Below are positions 11,069-60,574 of a stretch of DNA of 64,000 nucleotides, one piece after another; the stretch's first letter is position 1; the number at the start of each line of letters is the position of its first letter. Origin of the DNA: a virus; the IMG/VR virus record IMGVR_UViG_3300042526_000402, positions 1 through 64,000 of that record; one strand, written 5' to 3'. The translations under genes were made by a program, and so were the position numbers. The notes under the pieces are model-generated. The model saw only the letters and a program-made list of their open reading frames with translations, had not been told where the DNA came from and made no database searches.

Positions 11069-13282
11069 CTATTTTATATTTTTAAATGGAGATCTTTTTA
11101 CATTTTGTCCTCCTGATGAACTACCTGAAGTCCTCCCCATATGACGGAAAGGACTACTGTTTAATTTAAACAAATTTTCTGACTTCTGCAAGTTTTTGGC
11201 TGCATCATCCATGATGACTCTCTTAGCATAACCTCTGTTTGCTTGCTGTATTCTCATGAATGCAACCAGTGCACAAAATGCTACAAGCCTATCCACATTG
11301 ACTCCATCTGAGTATGCACCCATTTCTTTTAGCAACATAATATCTGGTATCCTTTCAATACCATATTTAGTTCTTACAATAGTACCATCAGATTTAGTTT
11401 CAACATCTAATTCTTCTTTAGTATATTCTATAGCATAACTTAATAAGTGAGCTTTGAATAATGTTCCTGTATTCTTCCAACCATACTCTTGATATACTGA
11501 ATTATTAGAACCAAGATCTTTTAAGAACATTATTTGACTTTTTGGTACTAAGTACTTCTGCTTCTTTCTAGAGATCATGTACTGGATAAATAATGAGATG
11601 TTATTCTCAATTACTGTCCAGGCATTATACCATTCTATTATTGTCTCAAGTCTTTGGTGAGTTTTATTAATATCATCAAACCTTCCGCACCAAGCTGCTA
11701 CAATTTTATCTGGTTCTATATATGTTTCAGTTTCTATACCTGTAACCTTTGTTACTTCTACAGGAGCTTTCATTATATATATAGAACACAAAGATTCAGA
11801 TGTAGTTGTTTTACCTTCAGCTACGGGGTCAATAGAAGCATAGTACATTCCAAAGTTAGGATTCTCAACGGGTCTTTCCCATACTACAAGAACTCCTGTT
11901 TTATCTTCAGTATTTTTTGTAATTGGAAATTCTGTAATTGGTCTTTTATTACTATGCTCAGGAAGTATCTTTCCATTGGCATCTCTACCTAAATCTAAGA
12001 ACTCATATGGGTAATCTTTATCTTCAATTCTTCTTTGTTGTGCTGTTACCAAATGCATTGGAAACTTAGATACTGTTCTGTTAGCAAAAGCTTCTTCAAT
12101 ATTTCTTGGATGCTGAGAAATCCTTAACTGATATGTTTCCGGATCAAGTTCTTTTTTCCATTTTTCAAACTGATCATCTAATGCTTCTAATGCTTCTTGT
12201 ACTTTAGAATTTCCAAAGTTATCAATATAGGGAGGCATAGACCATTGCTCAGGTATAAATAACCCAGATTTTCCTACAGAACCTTTATTATCTAGCAAAT
12301 CAGTTTCTACAGAGTATATATCATTTTCAGTTGGATACAGAATCATTTTTCTTAATGGTTCACATTGAGATAAATCCCCCACTGATCCTGCTGCAATAAA
12401 CATACCTGTAGTAGTTAAACCAGATCTCATTGCAGGACGCATATACTCATATGTATTATTCATTCTTGGAGCAATACCAGCCTCCTCATGGAAGAAGTAC
12501 TTAACCGGACCCCCTACACCATTTGTTGGATCTTTCTCAAATGACATACCTTGAATAGTACCTTTAAGACCTACTTCTGTTTTTCTGTCCCCTCTCCTTA
12601 CCTCAATCTTCTGTTGCCACATCATCACTTTGTCTGGAGACATAGGTCTATACCATGCTGTATGTTCATTAAGAAAAGCCGCGTACTCTTGTAAAAACTT
12701 CCAGGAACCTTTCTCATTAATGTAGTCTTTAAGGCTGGCACCAATCTTTAGAGTAACCCCTTCTTCAAACCATTGCTGGTTAAGAAGTTTAGCCATGTGA
12801 TAATAAGAAGAAGCTATCTGTCTTTTCTTTAGAATAGCTACATGGTTATAATTTAATTCTGATAGTATTTCATAAAGAGCCATGTGATATTGAGCATCTC
12901 TAATATCAGCAAAACCAAACTTTTGTATTTCTTTGTTGAAGATGGGTAAGAAGTTTAACCACATATAGTAGTCTCTAGTCATATACCAGACTTTACCTTT
13001 TTCTTTAATCAAGAGTCCTCTTCTGCATTTTGCTTTCTGATCATCCCAGTATGTTATAAAATCTTTAGATTTAAAAGGAGCTGTACAATAAACTTTGTCT
13101 TTATTAAACTTTGCAGATTCTTGTGTAAATAAATTTGCGGTAGTATCATTAAACTCATACTTACCAGGTTCTTTAAAAACATTGGTTAATAAGTATTCAT
13201 AGAATTCTTCTCTTGAGTTAAAGTCAGTAGAAGCCCATGTACCATTATCCCATGTAGGTATGTCTTGATATATTTCTCTCAT
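11069..13282 (-). CDS. terL: Terminase large subunit
   Basis: LKKRQIASSY (Walker A variant), FFHEEAG (Walker B), YYASIDPV nuclease Asp, VIENN, NVDRLVA. Confidence 0.9.
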   Translation of the reverse strand: MREIYQDIPTWDNGTWASTDFNSREEFYEYLLTNVFKEPGKYEFNDTTANLFTQESAKFNKDKVYCTAPFKSKDFITYWDDQKAKCRRGLLIKEKGKVWYMTRDYYMWLNFLPIFNKEIQKFGFADIRDAQYHMALYEILSELNYNHVAILKKRQIASSYYHMAKLLNQQWFEEGVTLKIGASLKDYINEKGSWKFLQEYAAFLNEHTAWYRPMSPDKVMMWQQKIEVRRGDRKTEVGLKGTIQGMSFEKDPTNGVGGPVKYFFHEEAGIAPRMNNTYEYMRPAMRSGLTTTGMFIAAGSVGDLSQCEPLRKMILYPTENDIYSVETDLLDNKGSVGKSGLFIPEQWSMPPYIDNFGNSKVQEALEALDDQFEKWKKELDPETYQLRISQHPRNIEEAFANRTVSKFPMHLVTAQQRRIEDKDYPYEFLDLGRDANGKILPEHSNKRPITEFPITKNTEDKTGVLVVWERPVENPNFGMYYASIDPVAEGKTTTSESLCSIYIMKAPVEVTKVTGIETETYIEPDKIVAAWCGRFDDINKTHQRLETIIEWYNAWTVIENNISLFIQYMISRKKQKYLVPKSQIMFLKDLGSNNSVYQEYGWKNTGTLFKAHLLSYAIEYTKEELDVETKSDGTIVRTKYGIERIPDIMLLKEMGAYSDGVNVDRLVAFCALVAFMRIQQANRGYAKRVIMDDAAKNLQKSENLFKLNSSPFRHMGRTSGSSSGGQNVKRSPFKNIK

Positions 13283-29919: not shown

Positions 29920-30060
29920 TTTAACCCCCCATGTTACCAAGTAGTAACTTACCCCCTGGTAACTTGATTTGGGTATTGGGAAATGTTGTATGTAGGAGAT
30001 GGTGGTGACCCCCCTATTCCAAGCCCCCCGGCCTGCGCCACTAGCCTCCCACCCCCCATG
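29920..30060. other. GC-rich C-tract island at the strand switch (candidate genome end, packaging site or origin)
   Basis: Five runs of 5-6 C in an AT-rich genome, exactly between the divergent arms. Confidence 0.4.
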
Positions 30061-30161
30061 CTTTGAGAGAGCTAACCCTTGAATCAAGAAATATAATAAA
30101 CTTTTTCTTGACAGAAAAAGAACTAACCCTTATCTAGAACTAAATATAAAATTTAGAAATC

Positions 30162-30389
30162 ATGGATAAAAAAGACAGGTTGTATACTTTCAGATGCAAA
30201 GTGTGCAAATCACAGCAAGATTGGGGATTCTTATTGATTGTTGTAGGCTTTGAAAATAAAGCCTTTACAATCAACAAGAACTATGCTACAAAGTGTGGTA
30301 TGGTTCTTAATAGAATATATGATGTTACTGCAACCTTGAAAGAGGTTGGCAAGTATACAAATATTGAGAAAATATTGAGAGTGCATTAG
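30162..30389 (+). CDS. Small early protein (possible OB-fold)
   Basis: 75 aa between a promoter box and a terminator. Confidence 0.6.
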   Translation: MDKKDRLYTFRCKVCKSQQDWGFLLIVVGFENKAFTINKNYATKCGMVLNRIYDVTATLKEVGKYTNIEKILRVH

Positions 30390-30405
30390 GCACTCTCTTT
30401 TTTTC
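30377..30405 (+). terminator. Intrinsic terminator
   Basis: GAGAGTGC-attag-GCACTCTC-T7. Confidence 0.75.
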
Positions 30406-30447
30406 TTCCCTCTCTTTTCTCTAACCCTTAACATATATAAAAATATA

Positions 30448-30649
30448 TACTCTCATCTAAGCAAGATATCATTCACTCAAGTGATATAACTAACTTACTG
30501 AACTGATACGTCATCTGTTGGAGAACAGTGCATCTATTAGACAAGAATAGCTATCATATTAGTTAGCAAAATTGTAATTCAATAGAGAAGAATTGAGTTC
30601 TATAAATCATAGGTTGAGTTACAAGGGTTGCAACCTTGTGAGAGTACTA
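30448..30649 (+). ncRNA. tRNA-shaped structured RNA, copy 1
   Basis: TACTCTCA/TGAGAGTA closing stem, TCT-AAGCA-AGA hairpin, CAAGG-GTTGCAA-CCTTG hairpin, 3' CTA; covaries with copy 2. Confidence 0.65.
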
Positions 30650-30772
30650 TACTGCTATTGAGTTAACTGAACAAATGATGTTCTCATAGCAGTATTATTA
30701 TGTAACAATCAGAGGCATTCTCCTTAAAGGCTTTGGAGATGTAAGTACCGTAAAAGGAGTTAGCCACTCAAT

Positions 30773-30805
30773 AAGAGAGAACTATAAAGGTTCTCTCTTT
30801 TTTTT
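30773..30805 (+). terminator. Intrinsic terminator
   Basis: AAGAGAGAAC-tataaag-GTTCTCTCTT-T tract. Confidence 0.75.
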
Positions 30806-32393: not shown

Positions 32394-32600
32394 ATGAAAA
32401 CTTACAAAATTTATTGGTCAGTAGACCAAAGAACAGGTGATAACCTTATTAAAGCTACTTCAGAAGAATTAGCTATTGCAGAATTTAAATCTGCTTATCC
32501 TAATAAACTTGTTGAACAAATAATAAACTGTTCAACACAAGAATATCAGCTTGCTTATGATAATGAGCAATTTGATTCTAATGGTAGAAGAAAATTCTAA
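32394..32600 (+). CDS. Small hypothetical protein
   Basis: 68 aa; IKATSEELA; followed by an AAGGGGTA-gaaa-TACCCCTT terminator. Confidence 0.65.
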   Translation: MKTYKIYWSVDQRTGDNLIKATSEELAIAEFKSAYPNKLVEQIINCSTQEYQLAYDNEQFDSNGRRKF

Positions 32601-32650
32601 GGGGTAGAAATACCCCTTTTATAAAATAATAATCTCAAAAACTAAAAACC

Positions 32651-33028
32651 ATGACTAATTTATTATGGTGTTCTGCTCATACACCAACAAAAGAGCAAAT
32701 GGAATCACTGAATTCAATGGGACGTGTAATATTCTTGAAAGATATTAACACAACTATACAAGATAAAATAAATAACTGCTCTTCTGATAGAAGTGAGTTA
32801 ATGGATCTTGCCCAAGAATTAAATAAAATAAGACTTGACCTTGACTGTACAATAGTGCAATTAGGTGGCTCACCGATGTTCTTGTATATTGCTGGAGCTA
32901 GTATTAATAGCTGTTTATCAAAACAAGCATTAATATTTGCTCACTCAGAAAGAGTATCAGTAGATATACCACAAGAAGACGGAACTGTAGTGAAAACCAG
33001 TGTGTTTAAACACATTGGTTGGATCTAA
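32651..33028 (+). CDS. Csx20/Csx15-like protein (candidate cyclic oligoadenylate ring nuclease)
   Basis: SAHTPTKEQ N-terminus; VQLGG; AHSERVSVD...DGTVVKTSVFKH.GW C-terminus. Confidence 0.5.
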   Translation: MTNLLWCSAHTPTKEQMESLNSMGRVIFLKDINTTIQDKINNCSSDRSELMDLAQELNKIRLDLDCTIVQLGGSPMFLYIAGASINSCLSKQALIFAHSERVSVDIPQEDGTVVKTSVFKHIGWI

Positions 33029-33035
33029 TAAAATA

Positions 33036-33147
33036 CTCTGTAATATCAGTTGTAATACCTGAATAATGGTCACATCAAAAGCATGTAGGTATATATCAAT
33101 ATTACATTGATTGAAGTATCATGCTATTACAACTGAGTGCAGAGGGA
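33036..33147 (+). ncRNA. Structured RNA motif B, copy 1
   Basis: CAGTTGTAATA/TATTACAACTG stem followed by AGTGCAGAGGGA. Confidence 0.5.
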
Positions 33148-33277
33148 TTATTAAAAGGTTAATAGCAGTCCTTAAATGCTAGATGCAGTGGATAAGCAGT
33201 TTAAACCACTAGGGATACCGTAAATCGGTCAAGGAAAGGTAGACTCCTTATAAGCTACTTTAATAAAATGTACCATT

Positions 33278-33370
33278 CTCACTTCCCAAGGGTGAGCAGT
33301 TGTAGTGAACATTGTGCAGTGCTTTTAGTAGCTAAGCTAAATCACTTCATTACAACTGAGTGCAAGGGAA
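33278..33370 (+). ncRNA. Structured RNA motif B, copy 2 (with pseudoknot)
   Basis: CTCAC-TTCCCAAGG-GTGAG hairpin; CAGTTGTAGTGAA/TTCATTACAACTG stem; tail AGTGCAAGGGAA, whose GGGAA can pair with loop TTCCC. Confidence 0.55.
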
Positions 33371-33371
33371 T

Positions 33372-33466
33372 TACTCTTGTCCAAGCAGGATTAATATACT
33401 ACCTATCTGATCATAATATCAGACTATAGGATGTATATCAGGGATTGCAACCCTGCAAGAGTACTA
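33372..33466 (+). ncRNA. tRNA-shaped structured RNA, copy 2
   Basis: TACTCTTG/CAAGAGTA stem, TCC-AAGCA-GGA, long central hairpin, CAGGG-ATTGCAA-CCCTG, 3' CTA. Confidence 0.65.
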
Positions 33467-33504
33467 ATTAATAATCTAAATAATAATCTCAAAATTTAAA
33501 CCTT

Positions 33505-34260
33505 ATGAAAATTCATTTAAACTCTAGAAATGGTGTGTATACTGTAAAGTCTTACAATAATACATACATATATTTAGTAACTAAGCATTATGAAATGCGT
33601 GTACCATGCAGTGACTTTAAAGCATTTGCTGGTGGTAATCATAACTTTAGCATTAATACAGAAGAAACAGATAAGTTTCTTGCTACTGTTAATCCATCAA
33701 TGTTTCAGCATCAAGCAAAGATGACTGAAAATATTATAGAAGCTGTCAAAGCTTTATCTACTAAACAAATAGAGTTAGATGATAAAGAAGAAATTGATGA
33801 AGCTGATAACATACAATATGAAAATTGGTATTATCAGAAATCGGAAGAGTTAGCTAAGTATAAAGACAAGATCCGCAAGACTGCATCTGATGTGTATAAA
33901 CAAAAATTAGACTTTAGTGATCTTCAAATTCATGATGGTATCAAGTTTATCATACAAGCTAAGCATGATGAAACAGACTTTAGATTCTGTTTTGATCCAT
34001 TTGGATTTGTAGATAACTTTCATAGTTCAATCAGTAATATATACCGTGAAATTGGTTATGGTACTATTAATGGTGGTTGGATTAAAGTAATAAACAAAAA
34101 TGTTATTCTATACTACAAGTCTGGTGACTATGGTGTGTATGATGATATCATTGCTATAGAAGCAGCAAAGAAATTGTTCCCGAATCATAATATCAGCTCA
34201 TATGCTGGTAGACAGTGGGATAATGAATTGAATGTAAAATATGATGATTTACCTTTCTGA
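33505..34260 (+). CDS. Protein with C-terminal Janus/PHPT1-like domain
   Basis: FHSSI...NGGWI....KN.ILYYKSGDYG......AAKKLFP resembles the YHADI...GGGRI...I.VYGYS..YG pattern. Confidence 0.45.
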   Translation: MKIHLNSRNGVYTVKSYNNTYIYLVTKHYEMRVPCSDFKAFAGGNHNFSINTEETDKFLATVNPSMFQHQAKMTENIIEAVKALSTKQIELDDKEEIDEADNIQYENWYYQKSEELAKYKDKIRKTASDVYKQKLDFSDLQIHDGIKFIIQAKHDETDFRFCFDPFGFVDNFHSSISNIYREIGYGTINGGWIKVINKNVILYYKSGDYGVYDDIIAIEAAKKLFPNHNISSYAGRQWDNELNVKYDDLPF

Positions 34261-52545: not shown

Positions 52546-53853
52546 ATGAATAAAGTAGATTTACTAAGCAAGGCCAGTAAGGACATAATGCTTAAAGAGC
52601 CCTATTATGGGTATTTTCTAATCCAGCTAAATAAGCATTGGAGAAATGACATTCCTACAGCAGGAGTTAGTAAGAATGGAATAAACTACCAGTTAGCAAT
52701 TAATGAGACTTTCTGGTGTGGATTGACTGATTTAAATAGATTAGGTTTGTTAAAACATGAGCTATTACACATTGCATTTGGACACTTAACAGCATATCAT
52801 AATTTTGCTGATAAGAGAATGGCCAACATTGCAATGGATATGGAAATTAACCAGTATATAGAAAATGACTGGTTACCGGGTGGAGAATATACTACAGAAG
52901 AATTTACACTGTTGAAAGATGCTGTAATGACTGAGTATAAAAAAGCAAAAGATAATAATGCTACACCAGAGGAACTAAAAGAAATTGAATCTAAGATACC
53001 TTGCAGAGGTATAATGATTGATGATTATCATGAGTTGAATCTTGATACAAAGGCAGGTACTAAATACTACTATAAGAAGCTGAAAGAGGCTCAGGAGCAG
53101 AAGGAACAAACTGGTACTTCAGGTTCAGAAGCTATGGATCAATTGCTTGACCAAATGGAACAAGGAATGAGTCCAGGTGATGATCATGGTACATGGGAAG
53201 AGTTTGACGGCATAAGTGAAACAGAACAAAAACTTATGGAAGGTCAAATTCAAAGAATTCTCACCGAAGCTAAAGACCAGACTGAAAAGAAAAGAGGTCA
53301 TGTTCCTGGTGAAATGTCCAGTCTTATTAAAGTAGAAGAATTTGTAAAACCAAAATTTGATTGGAGAGGTTATGTAAGAAGATTTACTGGTACAAGTACA
53401 AAAGTATTTACCAAGAAACTTCAAAGAAAGGAAAACAGAAGATTTCCGGCTTTTCCAGGTCTAAAAATTAAAATGCGTCAGCACATCTTGTTAGCTATTG
53501 ATACTTCAGGTTCAGTAAGTGATTCAGAGCTAAAAGAGTTTATGAATGAGATTCATCACATTTATAAAACAGGTGTTGATATTACTATTATCCAATGTGA
53601 TACAAAAATCAACAGTATTGAGCCCTATAAAGGCAAGAATGATTTGAATGTTGTTGGTAGAGGTGGGACTGAATTTGATCCCGTCCTAGAGTATTATGAT
53701 GCAAACATCAGAAAGTTTACAAGTTTAATATACTTTACTGATGGTGAGTGTTATACAAGTATAAAGCCAAAAGGCAAAATATTGTGGGTATTATCTGAAA
53801 GATCAGATATGAATGATAAATTACCAGGCAAAATTATTAAGTTAGAGTTATAA
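52546..53853 (+). CDS. DUF2201-type metallopeptidase-like/vWA domain protein
   Basis: PTAGV, KHELLH, N.AMD.EINQ, IDTSGS (MIDAS), GRGGT.F.PV, FTDGE. Confidence 0.85.
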   Translation: MNKVDLLSKASKDIMLKEPYYGYFLIQLNKHWRNDIPTAGVSKNGINYQLAINETFWCGLTDLNRLGLLKHELLHIAFGHLTAYHNFADKRMANIAMDMEINQYIENDWLPGGEYTTEEFTLLKDAVMTEYKKAKDNNATPEELKEIESKIPCRGIMIDDYHELNLDTKAGTKYYYKKLKEAQEQKEQTGTSGSEAMDQLLDQMEQGMSPGDDHGTWEEFDGISETEQKLMEGQIQRILTEAKDQTEKKRGHVPGEMSSLIKVEEFVKPKFDWRGYVRRFTGTSTKVFTKKLQRKENRRFPAFPGLKIKMRQHILLAIDTSGSVSDSELKEFMNEIHHIYKTGVDITIIQCDTKINSIEPYKGKNDLNVVGRGGTEFDPVLEYYDANIRKFTSLIYFTDGECYTSIKPKGKILWVLSERSDMNDKLPGKIIKLEL

Positions 53854-58446: not shown

Positions 58447-58457
58447 TTAATTAAATT

Positions 58458-58547
58458 GCTTATTTGGTGTAAGGAGGAATGAATACTCTACATGGTTTTA
58501 ACATGCTAACTTGTTAGTGGATAAGGGTTAGAATCCCTTAATAAGCA
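58458..58547 (+). tRNA. Atypical tRNA-like gene (anticodon loop GT-TTT-AA, long variable arm)
   Basis: Acceptor GCTTATT/AATAAGC+A; D stem GTGT/ATAC; CATG/CATG anticodon stem; CTAAC/GTTAG extra arm; T arm AAGGG-TTAGAAT-CCCTT. Confidence 0.6.
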
Positions 58548-58588
58548 ATTTTAACTTAACGGGGAGACAGCTTAACTGAATAAATCCT

Positions 58589-60574
58589 ATGAAAACCAAC
58601 TATGTACACGACTATGAAACACTCAAGAATTGTTTCATTGGAGTCTTTGAGGATGTAAAATCTGAGAATAAAAAAATATTTGTGTGTCATGAATCCAGAA
58701 ATGATATCTTTGATTTAATAACATTTTTAGAACACAACATTGCCTATAATGAATGGCATATAAGCTTTAATGGTTTAGCATTTGATGCTCAAATAACAGA
58801 GCATATTCTTAGAAATAAGAGAATGCTGCTTTCTAGCAATGGAGACAAGATAGCAAGATTTCTTTATTACAAAGCACAAGATGTAATTTCAAGACAGAAC
58901 AGAGGAGAATTTGCAGAGTTTAAACCTAAGCAAATTAAAATCAATCAGATTGATTTGTTTAAACTTAATCACTGGGATAATCCAGCTAAAAGAAGTTCAC
59001 TAAAGTGGATTCAGTATACAATGGATTGGGCTAACATAGTAGATATGCCAATTCACCACACTAAAGAAATTACTGCACAAGAAGTAGACACTGTTATTAG
59101 TTACTGTATTAATGATGTCAAGTCTACTAAAGCTATTTTGATGTTATCTAAGAGTCAGATTGATCTCCGGAAAAATCTAACTATGGAGTATAATATTGAT
59201 TTATTCAGTGCCTCTGAACCAAGAATTTCTAAAGAATTGTTTTTGCATTTCTTGAGTGAAAAAACTGGATACAAAAAATGGGACCTAAAAGAACTCAGAA
59301 CTTATAGAAGCCTCATAAAATTTGAAGATATTATTCTTCCTTACACAAAGTTTGAGACAGCAACATTTCAAAATTTACTAAAGAAGTTTAAGGAGATTGA
59401 ATTAGATCCGATGTATACCAAAGGAGGGTTTAAGTATTCTGTGCAATATAAGGGTGTGAAAACAGATTTTGGTCTGGGTGGTGTTCATGGAGCTAGAACA
59501 GCTGGTGTATATGAATCAGATGATGATATGGTAATCATGTCTTCAGATGTTGTCAGTTATTATCCAAACTTAGCTATTAGAAATAAATGGGCCCCTTATC
59601 ACCTTCCTAAAGCAGAATTCTGTGATCTGTATGAATGGTTCTTTAATGAAAGAAAGAAAATAAGCAAGAAGGATCCAAAGAACTATGTATATAAGATTAT
59701 CCTTAACTCAACTTATGGTTTGAGTAATGATGAGAATAGTTTTCTGTATGATCCAGAGTTCACAATGAGGATCACTGTTAATGGTCAGCTAAGTCTAATG
59801 ATGCTGTATGAGATGATTTGTGAAGAGATTCCAGACGTTACTCCGCTAATGCAGAATACAGATGGTCTAGAGACAATGATTCCTAGAAAGTATTATGATA
59901 AGTATATGGAAATATGTGAGAGATGGCAGAATATAACTAATCTGCAGCTGGAGCATGATACATATAGTAAAGTAATACTTGGTGATGTAAATAATTACAT
60001 TGCTGTAACTGAAAGAAAGAAAATAGACAAAGAAGTTTATGAGGAACTCAAGAAAAAAGTCCCTTATGATGTCTATGAAGAAATTAATGGAGAATATTTC
60101 TTTAAAGCAACTAAGTCCAAGGGCAGATTTGAGTTTAGTAATCTAGCATTACATAAAAACAAAAGCTTCTTGATTATTCCAAAGGCTATATTTATGTATT
60201 TTGTACATGGAATAAAACCTGAAGATTACTTTCTTACAGAAAACAACATATTTGATTACTGTGGTGGTGTTAAAATCAAAGGGAATTGGGAATTTGTAGA
60301 ACACTATGTAGATAAGGGTGATTATACAAAAAACAAATTACAACATACTTTGAGGTATTACATCTCTAATACTGGTAGTAAGATAATCAAAGAAAACAAA
60401 GATGACAAGCGGGAAATTCAGATAGAAGCTGGACGCTGGTTGCAAACAGTTTATGTAAAACATGTAGAAACACCATTTGAAGAATATGGTATTAATCTGA
60501 AATATTATTCAGATAAGGTTTATAAAGAGATACAATCTCTTGAACCACTAGTTACTCAATTAAAATTATTTTGA
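58589..60574 (+). CDS. polB: DNA polymerase family B
   Basis: Exonuclease DYET, FNG..FD, YC.NDV; polymerase SDVVSYYP, KIILNSTYG, NTDG, DVNNY. Confidence 0.92.
   Translation: MKTNYVHDYETLKNCFIGVFEDVKSENKKIFVCHESRNDIFDLITFLEHNIAYNEWHISFNGLAFDAQITEHILRNKRMLLSSNGDKIARFLYYKAQDVISRQNRGEFAEFKPKQIKINQIDLFKLNHWDNPAKRSSLKWIQYTMDWANIVDMPIHHTKEITAQEVDTVISYCINDVKSTKAILMLSKSQIDLRKNLTMEYNIDLFSASEPRISKELFLHFLSEKTGYKKWDLKELRTYRSLIKFEDIILPYTKFETATFQNLLKKFKEIELDPMYTKGGFKYSVQYKGVKTDFGLGGVHGARTAGVYESDDDMVIMSSDVVSYYPNLAIRNKWAPYHLPKAEFCDLYEWFFNERKKISKKDPKNYVYKIILNSTYGLSNDENSFLYDPEFTMRITVNGQLSLMMLYEMICEEIPDVTPLMQNTDGLETMIPRKYYDKYMEICERWQNITNLQLEHDTYSKVILGDVNNYIAVTERKKIDKEVYEELKKKVPYDVYEEINGEYFFKATKSKGRFEFSNLALHKNKSFLIIPKAIFMYFVHGIKPEDYFLTENNIFDYCGGVKIKGNWEFVEHYVDKGDYTKNKLQHTLRYYISNTGSKIIKENKDDKREIQIEAGRWLQTVYVKHVETPFEEYGINLKYYSDKVYKEIQSLEPLVTQLKLF

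Follow-up and report, generated by a model that had tools for sequence, protein, structure and literature searches.

A phage lineage of probable type-P1 twister ribozymes with variable inserts in the P5 arm

According to the excerpts of PMC11662667 drawn upon here, the twister ribozyme cleaves at an 'NA' site, with an A acting as general acid and a G as general base, and its fold combines a 2-bp pseudoknot 1 (PK1) with a pseudoknot 2 (PK2) that is stacked between helices P1 and P2. Loop L4 has nine positions, including a sensitive A6; P1 is dispensable, and the P5/L5 arms hardly affect cleavage. Twisters are reported, in the portion of PMC10085705 concerned with them, to be enriched near phage-related genes "for unknown reasons", and the same portion records no promising non-circular twister permutations. 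In gut phages, theta ribozymes, which are minimal ribozymes of the hepatitis delta virus (HDV)-like kind, are thought to trim non-coding RNAs, as outlined in extracts from PMC10879173. The motif treated here occurs twice on the plus strand of a 64,000-nt stretch of phage DNA (hereafter the window), which represents the first 64 kb of the 135,860-bp IMG/VR record IMGVR_UViG_3300042526_000402. Its second copy (copy 2) is probably a member of a large lineage of phage-borne, self-cleaving type-P1 twister ribozymes scoring below Rfam thresholds, judging from sequence, structure and covariation. The motif extends the known twister class and founds no new one. Searches of the full-text literature, supplementary alignments aside, listed no published phage twister lineage with P5 inserts.

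Layout of the two copies

Copies 1 and 2 lie in a 476-nt gap free of open reading frames (ORFs; 33029–33504), between two plus-strand ORFs (Table 1). A first-pass annotation, made from the letters of the window, had described two motif copies with long stems around unrelated inserts and a conserved tail, and all of these are in place. The stem of copy 1 comprises 12 bp at 100 % complementarity (33046–33057 with 33125–33136) and its tail, AGTGCAGAGGGA, ends at 33147; the stem of copy 2 spans 13 nt at 92 % complementarity, and its tail, AGTGCAAGGGA, ends at 33369. The two inserts are unrelated in sequence, and the 3′ ends of the copies form a 25-nt direct repeat (33126–33150 and 33349–33373, 88 % identity). 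A search of the window for the tail with up to three mismatches returned 8 matches, where 8.4 were expected; only the two exact copies count.

The same annotation had noted a hairpin, CTCAC-TTCCCAAGG-GTGAG, ahead of copy 2, with a loop complementary to the terminal GGG. The hairpin is present at 33278–33296, and the CCC of its loop (33285–33287) is complementary to GGG at 33366–33368. The suggested link to twister was also right, as the layout of copy 2 matches type P1, but the accompanying remark that a complete twister core was not to be seen has to be revised. The core is contained in copy 2, as A^AA-UGUA-CC on the 5′ side of the hairpin and UGCA-A-GGG on the 3′ side of the long stem. The cleavage dinucleotide N^AA is provided by A33266^A33267-A33268-UGUA, and the CC that follows is able to pair with GG 33290–33291 as PK1. 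An equivalent UAA-UGCA-CC layout is seen in the relative with the shortest P5 (locus L138; related loci are numbered throughout) when placed in the Rfam twister-P1 alignment.

Overall, the strand order is that of twister type P1, namely (P1)-N^AA-P2-PK1-L2-P4-L4-P4′-P5-L2′-P2′-GA-GGG(PK2)-(P1′). The wider family shares with that type a 9-nt L4 in which CCC, A6 and a putative partner for PK1 are found; it likewise has an A following the cut, a G ahead of PK2, a dispensable P1 and an optional P5. Each of the twister features listed above from the excerpts of PMC11662667 has a counterpart within the family.

Table 1. Predicted features of the gap, in window coordinates (MFE, minimum free energy)
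Feature	Position	Strand	Basis
Copy 1, 5′ closing strand CUCUG, pairing with CAGAG 33140–33144 ('type 3')	33036–33040	+	MFE fold
Copy 1, P5-like stem (arms 33047–33057 and 33125–33135; insert 1, 33058–33124)	33047–33135	+	Inverted repeat
Copy 1, conserved 3′ strand A-G-UGCA-GA-GGG-A, identical to the family tail	33136–33147	+	
Element 1, structured spacer RNA (closing stem 33148–33155 with 33259–33266)	33148–33266	+	Inverted repeat
Copy 2, twister 5′ strand	33267–33277	+	Alignment with 58 relatives
A1A2, within copy 2 5′ strand	33267–33268	+	
P2 5′ strand UGUA, within copy 2 5′ strand	33269–33272	+	
CC of copy 2, PK1 5′ strand (or C33273 as fifth P2 pair)	33273–33274	+	
Linker AUU, within copy 2 5′ strand		+	
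P4 CUCAC/GUGAG with 9-nt L4 UUCCCAAGG	33278–33296	+	Covariation; L4 length and A6 agree with the excerpts of PMC11662667
PK2 5′ strand CCC, within L4	33285–33287	+	
A6, within L4	33288	+	
PK1 3′ strand GG, within L4	33290–33291	+	
Copy 2, P5 arm (33297–33309 with 33346–33358) around insert 2 (33310–33345)	33297–33358	+	Inverted repeat
Copy 2, twister 3′ strand: A-G, UGCA, lone A, GGG, A	33359–33369	+	Family alignment
P2 3′ strand UGCA	33361–33364	+	
Lone A (GA in the family)	33365	+	
PK2 3′ strand GGG	33366–33368	+	
Element 2, cloverleaf-like structured RNA directly 3′ of copy 2	33372–33464	+	MFE fold

Family, covariation and comparison with catalogued ribozymes

Exact matches to the tail pattern TACAACTGAGTGCA-N1-2-GGGA occur in at least 117 IMG/VR stretches, and those to the 5′-half pattern AATGCACCA-N7-8-TTCCCAAGG in at least 120. 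The two halves travel together: of 141 non-redundant occurrences of the 5′ pattern, 135 are followed by a tail, and the other six include contig ends and unrelated sequence. The 5′ part of the consensus reads U^AA-UGCA-CC-(AUU/AUAA/ACAA)-P4-UUCCCAAGG-P4′, and is continued by CAGUUGUAAU-(insert)-AUUACAACUG-A-G-UGCA-GA-GGG. Amongst 130 non-redundant canonical members, in which P2 is UGCA/UGCA and PK1 is CC/GG, the AA, the GGG and the L4 sequence UUCCCAAGG are invariant (130/130 each), GA is found in 128, and the residue preceding the cut (N-1) is U in 124 and A in two. A covariance model was built from a MAFFT alignment of 59 elements (alignment A1), and searches with it located 206 distinct elements in approximately 200 loci, divergent copies included. 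Copy 2 scores 82.1 bits with the family model, being itself part of the seed.

Pairing is well maintained across these elements. In alignment A1, 92.4 % of cells are paired, compared with 82.6 % in shuffles (0 of 500 as high) and 33–48 % when the partners are slid; the corresponding values for alignment A2 are 92.2 % and 79.6 % in shuffles. Changes on both sides of a pair were recorded for 5 of 5 P4 pairs in both of these alignments, for 9 of 10 (A1) and 10 of 10 (A2) P5 pairs, and, in alignment A3, for 5 of 5 P2 pairs, with 97.2 % of cells paired. P2 is found as UGCA/UGCA, UGUA/UACA, UGCG/CGCA and UGUG/CACA. Covariation of TTCCC with GGGAA in homologues had been proposed beforehand as a check, and it bears the pseudoknot out: 99.0 % of PK2 cells are paired in A2, where all three pairs are changed on both sides (2 of 3 in A3), the compensated elements comprising three with CAC:GUG and one each with CCA:UGG, UCC:GGA and UCA:UGA. 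As PK2 is absent from the search model, these counts are not biased by fit to it. The first C of the PK1 strand covaries with the G before P2′ (C:G to U:A in four rows of A3 and three of A2), suggesting a P2 of 5 bp and a shortened PK1.

The same observations bear on whether the motif might be a repeat at the level of DNA, such as a recombination site, transposon end or cassette boundary, with no RNA involved. In keeping with this, the base of P5 is highly conserved in sequence (CAGTTGTAAT in 53 of 130 members) and the inserts are interchangeable between inverted repeats. The compensatory changes, however, preserve pairing rather than sequence, the pseudoknot covaries, and G-U pairs are tolerated on this one strand only, as RNA would predict. 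Furthermore, the adjacent genes include no transposase or integrase, and the core is present in RNA libraries, where it is carried by contigs of four metatranscriptome runs belonging to four studies; one 390-nt RNA-library contig, at a depth of 662, holds both halves. Hardly any weight can therefore be given to a purely DNA-level repeat. Several RNA-library contigs start near 33278, and these starts were left unused, since contig ends in a shared repeat say nothing on RNA ends.

With regard to the distribution of the lineage, the core pattern was found in 41 stretches amongst 185,579 species genomes, where approximately 35 would be expected by chance (2 strands × 2 spacings × 596 Gb / 4^18). 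Six of these were confirmed by the model, all of them in metagenome-assembled genomes, and because only these six real elements occur in species genomes the lineage appears to be essentially phage-borne. Elsewhere in the source genome, tail matches with two mismatches lie at 121924 and 126843, and a weak model match at 120269–120353 (E 0.125) was dropped, as it has no twister motifs.

Comparison with Rfam points to twister, at a low score. Out of 4227 families, twister-P1 (RF03160) was the sole relevant match to L138, covering model positions 1–68 of 68 (P1, UAA, P2, GAGGG and P1′) with 19.2 bits and an E-value of 0.034. The ribozyme model search suggested by the first-pass annotation aligns a relative from end to end below threshold, and yields no twister match on the window copies themselves. 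At gathering thresholds, Rfam gave no matches over the whole window and no twister in 18 genome loci; at E up to 10, no ribozyme was returned for eight small relative loci and nothing relevant for a type-2 copy (L098:3280–3410; the types are described below). The phage family differs from RF03160 members in scoring below the Rfam threshold, in mostly lacking P1 and in an apparently 5-bp P2, as well as in a P5 that is conserved in sequence at its base and carries inserts; the family is, moreover, confined to phage contigs. Could another class (HDV-like/theta, pistol, hatchet, hammerhead or twister-sister) be concerned instead? In its favour, phage theta ribozymes are found in a comparable setting beside tRNAs, according to the extracts from PMC10879173, and the motif superficially resembles a hairpin-loop pseudoknot. 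Such a class nevertheless carries next to no probability, given that the window region, the short relative and the type-2 copy show no match to those Rfam families at E up to 10, and that the strand order fits twister element by element.

A number of observations weigh against assigning copy 2 and its family to twister. The 19.2 bits of L138 are far below the gathering score of 67.2, for which reason the family is uncatalogued, and Rfam at E up to 10 gave only chance matches of microRNA or small nucleolar RNA type, and no twister, over 32500–33700 and 33258–33378. Although 97 % of PK1 cells are paired, changes there are one-sided, with a single compensated case (U:A in L061), and P1 is weak, with 58–66 % of cells paired. 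Within copy 2, one pair of P2 (UGUA/UGCA) is G-U, and the conserved general-base G is missing, UGCA-A-GGG standing in place of the UGCA-GA-GGG of the family. The RNA-library data consist of assembled contigs and therefore speak to presence only, RNA ends being unreadable. Finally, 51 of 109 non-redundant tail-seeded copies (approximately 45 %) are not scored as twister-type, and 34 of them clearly have no twister 5′ half; because the non-twister forms keep the tail and P5, something besides catalysis also maintains the 3′ half.

The loss of the G also qualifies the earlier proposal of copy 2 as a self-cleaving module, for which the twister layout stands but an important catalytic residue does not. 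As this residue is absent, the window copy is probably weakened and may not cut at all, although some twister general-base variants still cleave (PMC11662667, excerpts). Contigs from two RNA libraries show that an intact, G-carrying variant exists in nature: in one (X23 record 19) a G is inserted behind 33364 and the sequence is otherwise identical to the window over 33294–33391 (98 nt), and in the other (X21 record 13), which covers 33349–33391, the same insertion is accompanied by two other differences.

Shells without the twister 5′ half and their inserts

The 109 tail-seeded copies divide into 58 of twister type, 24 of type 2, 8 of type 4, 2 of type 3, and 17 that are of other form or at contig ends. 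Type 2 reads UAAUCAG-Y-C-UCCCAAGG-GUGAG... and is without the 5′ strands of P2 and P4; it displays too little variation, and no convincing fold could be derived for it. Type 4, of which the window has no copy, is laid out as NCCC-(AA or UU)-UGCAC-UAA-CC-tetraloop-GG-UGAG-(P5)-A-GUGCA-(G/A)A-GGGN. Here the CCC that partners GGG is relocated directly upstream of (AA or UU)-UGCAC, and a tetraloop joins CC with GG, such that both pseudoknots become plain nested helices. The outer helix of this form, helix A, shows compensatory variation (UCUC/GAGA, UUUC/GAAA, ACCC/GGGU and UUCC/GGAA). Type 4 is probably non-catalytic, because AA is often replaced by UU. Its re-wired helices recall the non-circular hammerhead permutations treated in the excerpts of PMC10085705; type 4 is without a conserved A1 and is probably a non-cutting derivative rather than an active permutation.

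Copy 1 of the window exemplifies type 3. The family model (R1) finds it at 33022–33156 with 26.8 bits (E 2 × 10−5), through P5 and the tail alone, and a second model search scored the same region at 24.6 bits. It has no cleavage-site strand, no P4/L4, neither pseudoknot, no TTCCCAAGG hairpin, no UCCCAAGG loop and no partner for UGCA, there being just ACUCUG-UAAUAU upstream of its P5. The MFE fold instead places a CUCUG/CAGAG helix below an internal loop and P5. Similar closing helices are seen in L057 and L119 (CUCU(C)/...AGAG), and in L006 CCUUUG/CAAAGG occupies the equivalent place; since this is a compensatory change, the type-3 closing helix is itself maintained. On the evidence of its sequence, copy 1 is a disarmed derivative that has kept P5, the insert and the 3′ strand, and no ribozyme; the suggestion that it, too, might be a self-cleaving module finds no support. 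Type 3 is rare, being known besides the window from L057, L119 and L006 only. A search with the type-3 junction pattern returned 116 stretches (111 non-redundant), five of which have any downstream arm; only L057 and L119 are real, and the other matches were rejected as chance in AT-rich DNA. Amongst loci encoding relatives of the 251-aa protein downstream (L005–L009), the intergenic content differs and the element is confined to L006. Upstream of the type-3 shell in L006 and L119, and of its empty site in L005, stands a conserved block of approximately 40 nt whose last letters are ...GCUUCCGGAAAC; a further conserved non-coding RNA probably ends there.

The P5 arm is hypervariable: with their inserts, whole elements range from 52 to 261 nt in length, and the inserts of 174 distinct elements fall into 144 sequence clusters. 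Some inserts recur across phages behind different P4/P5 sequences or 5′ halves, with internal compensatory changes. An insert shared by L057 and L119 (both type 3) is found in L091 behind a type-2 half, L011 and L015 likewise combine one insert with different 5′ halves, and L134 carries insert 2 of the window within a P5 that has a compensated base.

The general-base G is retained in 58 of 58 twister-type copies of the tail-seeded set and is A in 7 of the 51 others (one-sided p of approximately 0.004, for copies that are not independent). Such a pattern is in keeping with selection for catalysis that is limited to copies with a complete active site. It also bears on the idea that the conserved shell is mainly a non-catalytic scaffold, in which a closed junction presents or protects the P5 insert, either through exonuclease resistance or by offering a phage or host protein a point of attachment, with cleavage incidental or lost. 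Such a scaffold would suit the three recurrent forms that keep P5 and the tail without a cleavage-site strand (24, 8 and 2 of 109, plus copy 1), the conversion of pseudoknots to nested helices in type 4, where helix A is compensatory, and the placement of one insert behind different 5′ halves (L057 and L119 versus L091; L011 versus L015). It is, however, unlikely: the majority form keeps all of the twister catalytic residues (AA in 130/130, GA in 128/130), these residues relax only in the non-twister forms, as selection for catalysis predicts, and no partner protein has been identified, the flanking ORFs having no PHROG match.

Turning to the inserts themselves, one tentative possibility is that the twister shell is a modular expression cassette, with the P5 inserts as functional cargo RNAs. 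This is put forward because there are 144 insert clusters, one bona fide tRNA insert, and conservation across phages with compensation. Cleavage would then release the cargo with defined 5′-OH and cyclic-phosphate ends, and the type-2, -3 and -4 shells would hold it in an unknotted mimic of the twister stack. If true, type 4 would represent the first natural re-wiring of the twister fold, with both pseudoknots turned into nested helices.

The tRNA insert just mentioned, that of L099, matches the Rfam tRNA model at 12576–12663 (47.4 bits versus a gathering score of 29), its acceptor stem being the P5 stem, and a canonical T-arm stands beside the 3′ arm of P5 in L075 and L086. From these one might suppose the elements to be precursor cassettes for tRNA-like RNAs, with P5 as an extended acceptor stem and the insert freed by host ribonuclease (RNase) P/RNase Z. 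This is very unlikely, as is the attendant notion that the twister-like shell only guides folding, for a T-arm is found in just 3 of 206 inserts, ARAGORN detects no tRNA among the 206 elements, the 144 insert clusters among 174 elements are diverse, and the two inserts of the window are simple hairpin-rich RNAs.

Genome setting and a predicted role in RNA processing

The source phage is present in freshwater and lake metagenomes, and the window has a G+C content of approximately 31 %. On the minus strand, up to approximately 30 kb, it encodes the major head protein, portal and large terminase, whereas the plus strand holds, from approximately 30.8 kb, numerous small ORFs together with genes for a helicase and a DNA polymerase. 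Both GC skew and the orientation of genes change over at approximately 30000–30800, with structural genes running leftward and early/replication genes rightward, and the RNA island lies approximately 2.5 kb inside the rightward block. A blastn comparison of 32600–33900 with 50,697 GenBank phage records produced no match. Within the replication module, a 435-aa plus-strand ORF (52546–53853) matches an HNH endonuclease PHROG over its full length (E 1 × 10−67).

The plus strand of the gap folds more stably than shuffled sequences (z = −4.84; −2.50 for the minus strand). The order of modules within it is a disarmed shell with insert 1, element 1, the predicted cut, the twister with insert 2, and element 2. 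From family membership, which rests on sequence, structure and covariation, we infer cleavage, a cut site and a role in processing. In the proposed fold, P2 would form as UGUA/UGCA and P4 around the loop UUCCCAAGG, of which the CCC would pair with the distal GGG (PK2) and the GG with the CC after P2 (PK1); P5 would be a long auxiliary arm between P4 and P2 that carries the variable insert. In an intact member, self-cleavage of the transcript would fall immediately before AA, which in copy 2 means the bond joining A33266 to A33267. Element 1, as the RNA on the upstream side, would be left with a 2′,3′-cyclic phosphate, and the unit of ribozyme, insert and element 2 with a 5′-OH. In this way, successive structured non-coding RNAs, transcribed together with the early/replication genes that run rightward, would come apart as separate pieces.

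Three features of the surroundings point to such a role in dividing RNA arrays. The closing stem, and with it the 3′ end, of element 1 coincides exactly with the predicted cut site; an RNA-library contig (X21 record 11) spans 33125–33259. Element 2, which is likewise spanned by an RNA-library contig, has a very long 'anticodon' arm and a T-like loop, AUUGCAA. Its 5′ end recurs after the tail in L048 and L091, and its 3′ end before U^AAUGCACC in L125, L131 and L163, where this element family ends 2–4 nt before the twister cut site; L162 and L204 have the same kind of ending, as judged from the 12 nt shown upstream of the site. Moreover, L061, L142 and L152 harbour tandem twister units in which a tail runs straight into the next U^AAUGCACC. 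Because the stem of element 1 ends at the cut, the element-2 family precedes cut sites, and twisters occur head to tail, cis-cleavage separating the units of a multi-RNA precursor would seem the most economical reading. Circularisation by a phage ligase is unsupported, as a search of the phage for RtcB, RNA_ligase and PolyA_pol (CCA-adding) gave 0 matches. For the window inserts, the best antisense target in the 135.9-kb genome was 13 nt (E 0.09), which is at chance level.

As to likeness to tRNA, the first-pass annotation had spoken of a tRNA-shaped element 2 adjoining copy 2. The element does adjoin it, starting at 33372, but the tRNA identity is not borne out: ARAGORN called no tRNA in 33001–33520 at default or 85 % thresholds and only implausible ones at 70 %, and elements 1 and 2 and the window inserts have no Rfam tRNA match. 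Elsewhere in the window, ARAGORN reports a 92-nt tRNA with anticodon CUA (58457–58548, plus strand), labelled tRNA-Pyl and resembling an amber suppressor, just upstream of the DNA polymerase gene (58589–60574). It scores below gathering with the Rfam tRNA model, and may indicate recoding of TAG in part of the phage. The theta ribozymes of gut phages offer a parallel, in so far as the extracts from PMC10879173 describe them, being phage-borne with cut sites beside tRNA or tRNA-like genes, and the present phage also carries a CUA-anticodon suppressor-like tRNA; it differs in having a twister fold and no Rfam HDV-type match, and in coming from freshwater rather than gut.

Other structured RNAs were seen on the contigs of related elements. 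Rfam tRNA matches with canonical acceptor, D and T arms occur at L013:481–597, with an insertion of 56 nt in the anticodon arm, and at L033:10332–10489, where an anticodon-arm insertion likewise extends the match to 158 nt. Both might represent phage tRNAs that contain an intron or look split, located in the same RNA islands. A phage-borne transfer-messenger RNA (Rfam RF00023, 59.9 bits) lies at L041:885–1274 on the minus strand of a twister-family contig. In L049, directly 3′ of the tail (approximately 2740–2780), CUGAUGAG...CGAAAC after GGGA presents the hallmark boxes of a hammerhead, with no Rfam hammerhead match at gathering score.

If the assignment holds, the lineage places twister where its context can be read: in abundant lake phages, among consecutive structured non-coding RNAs that stand at the start of the early/replication genes. 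With the cut site at the junction of two RNA modules, twister function becomes testable as RNA-array processing. The family would also supply natural experiments, with P5 inserts by the hundred, copies distinguished solely by the general-base G, and three kinds of disarmed shell in which the architecture persists although the active site is gone. In practice, moreover, an entire phage-borne branch of an established ribozyme class would be escaping the standard Rfam thresholds.

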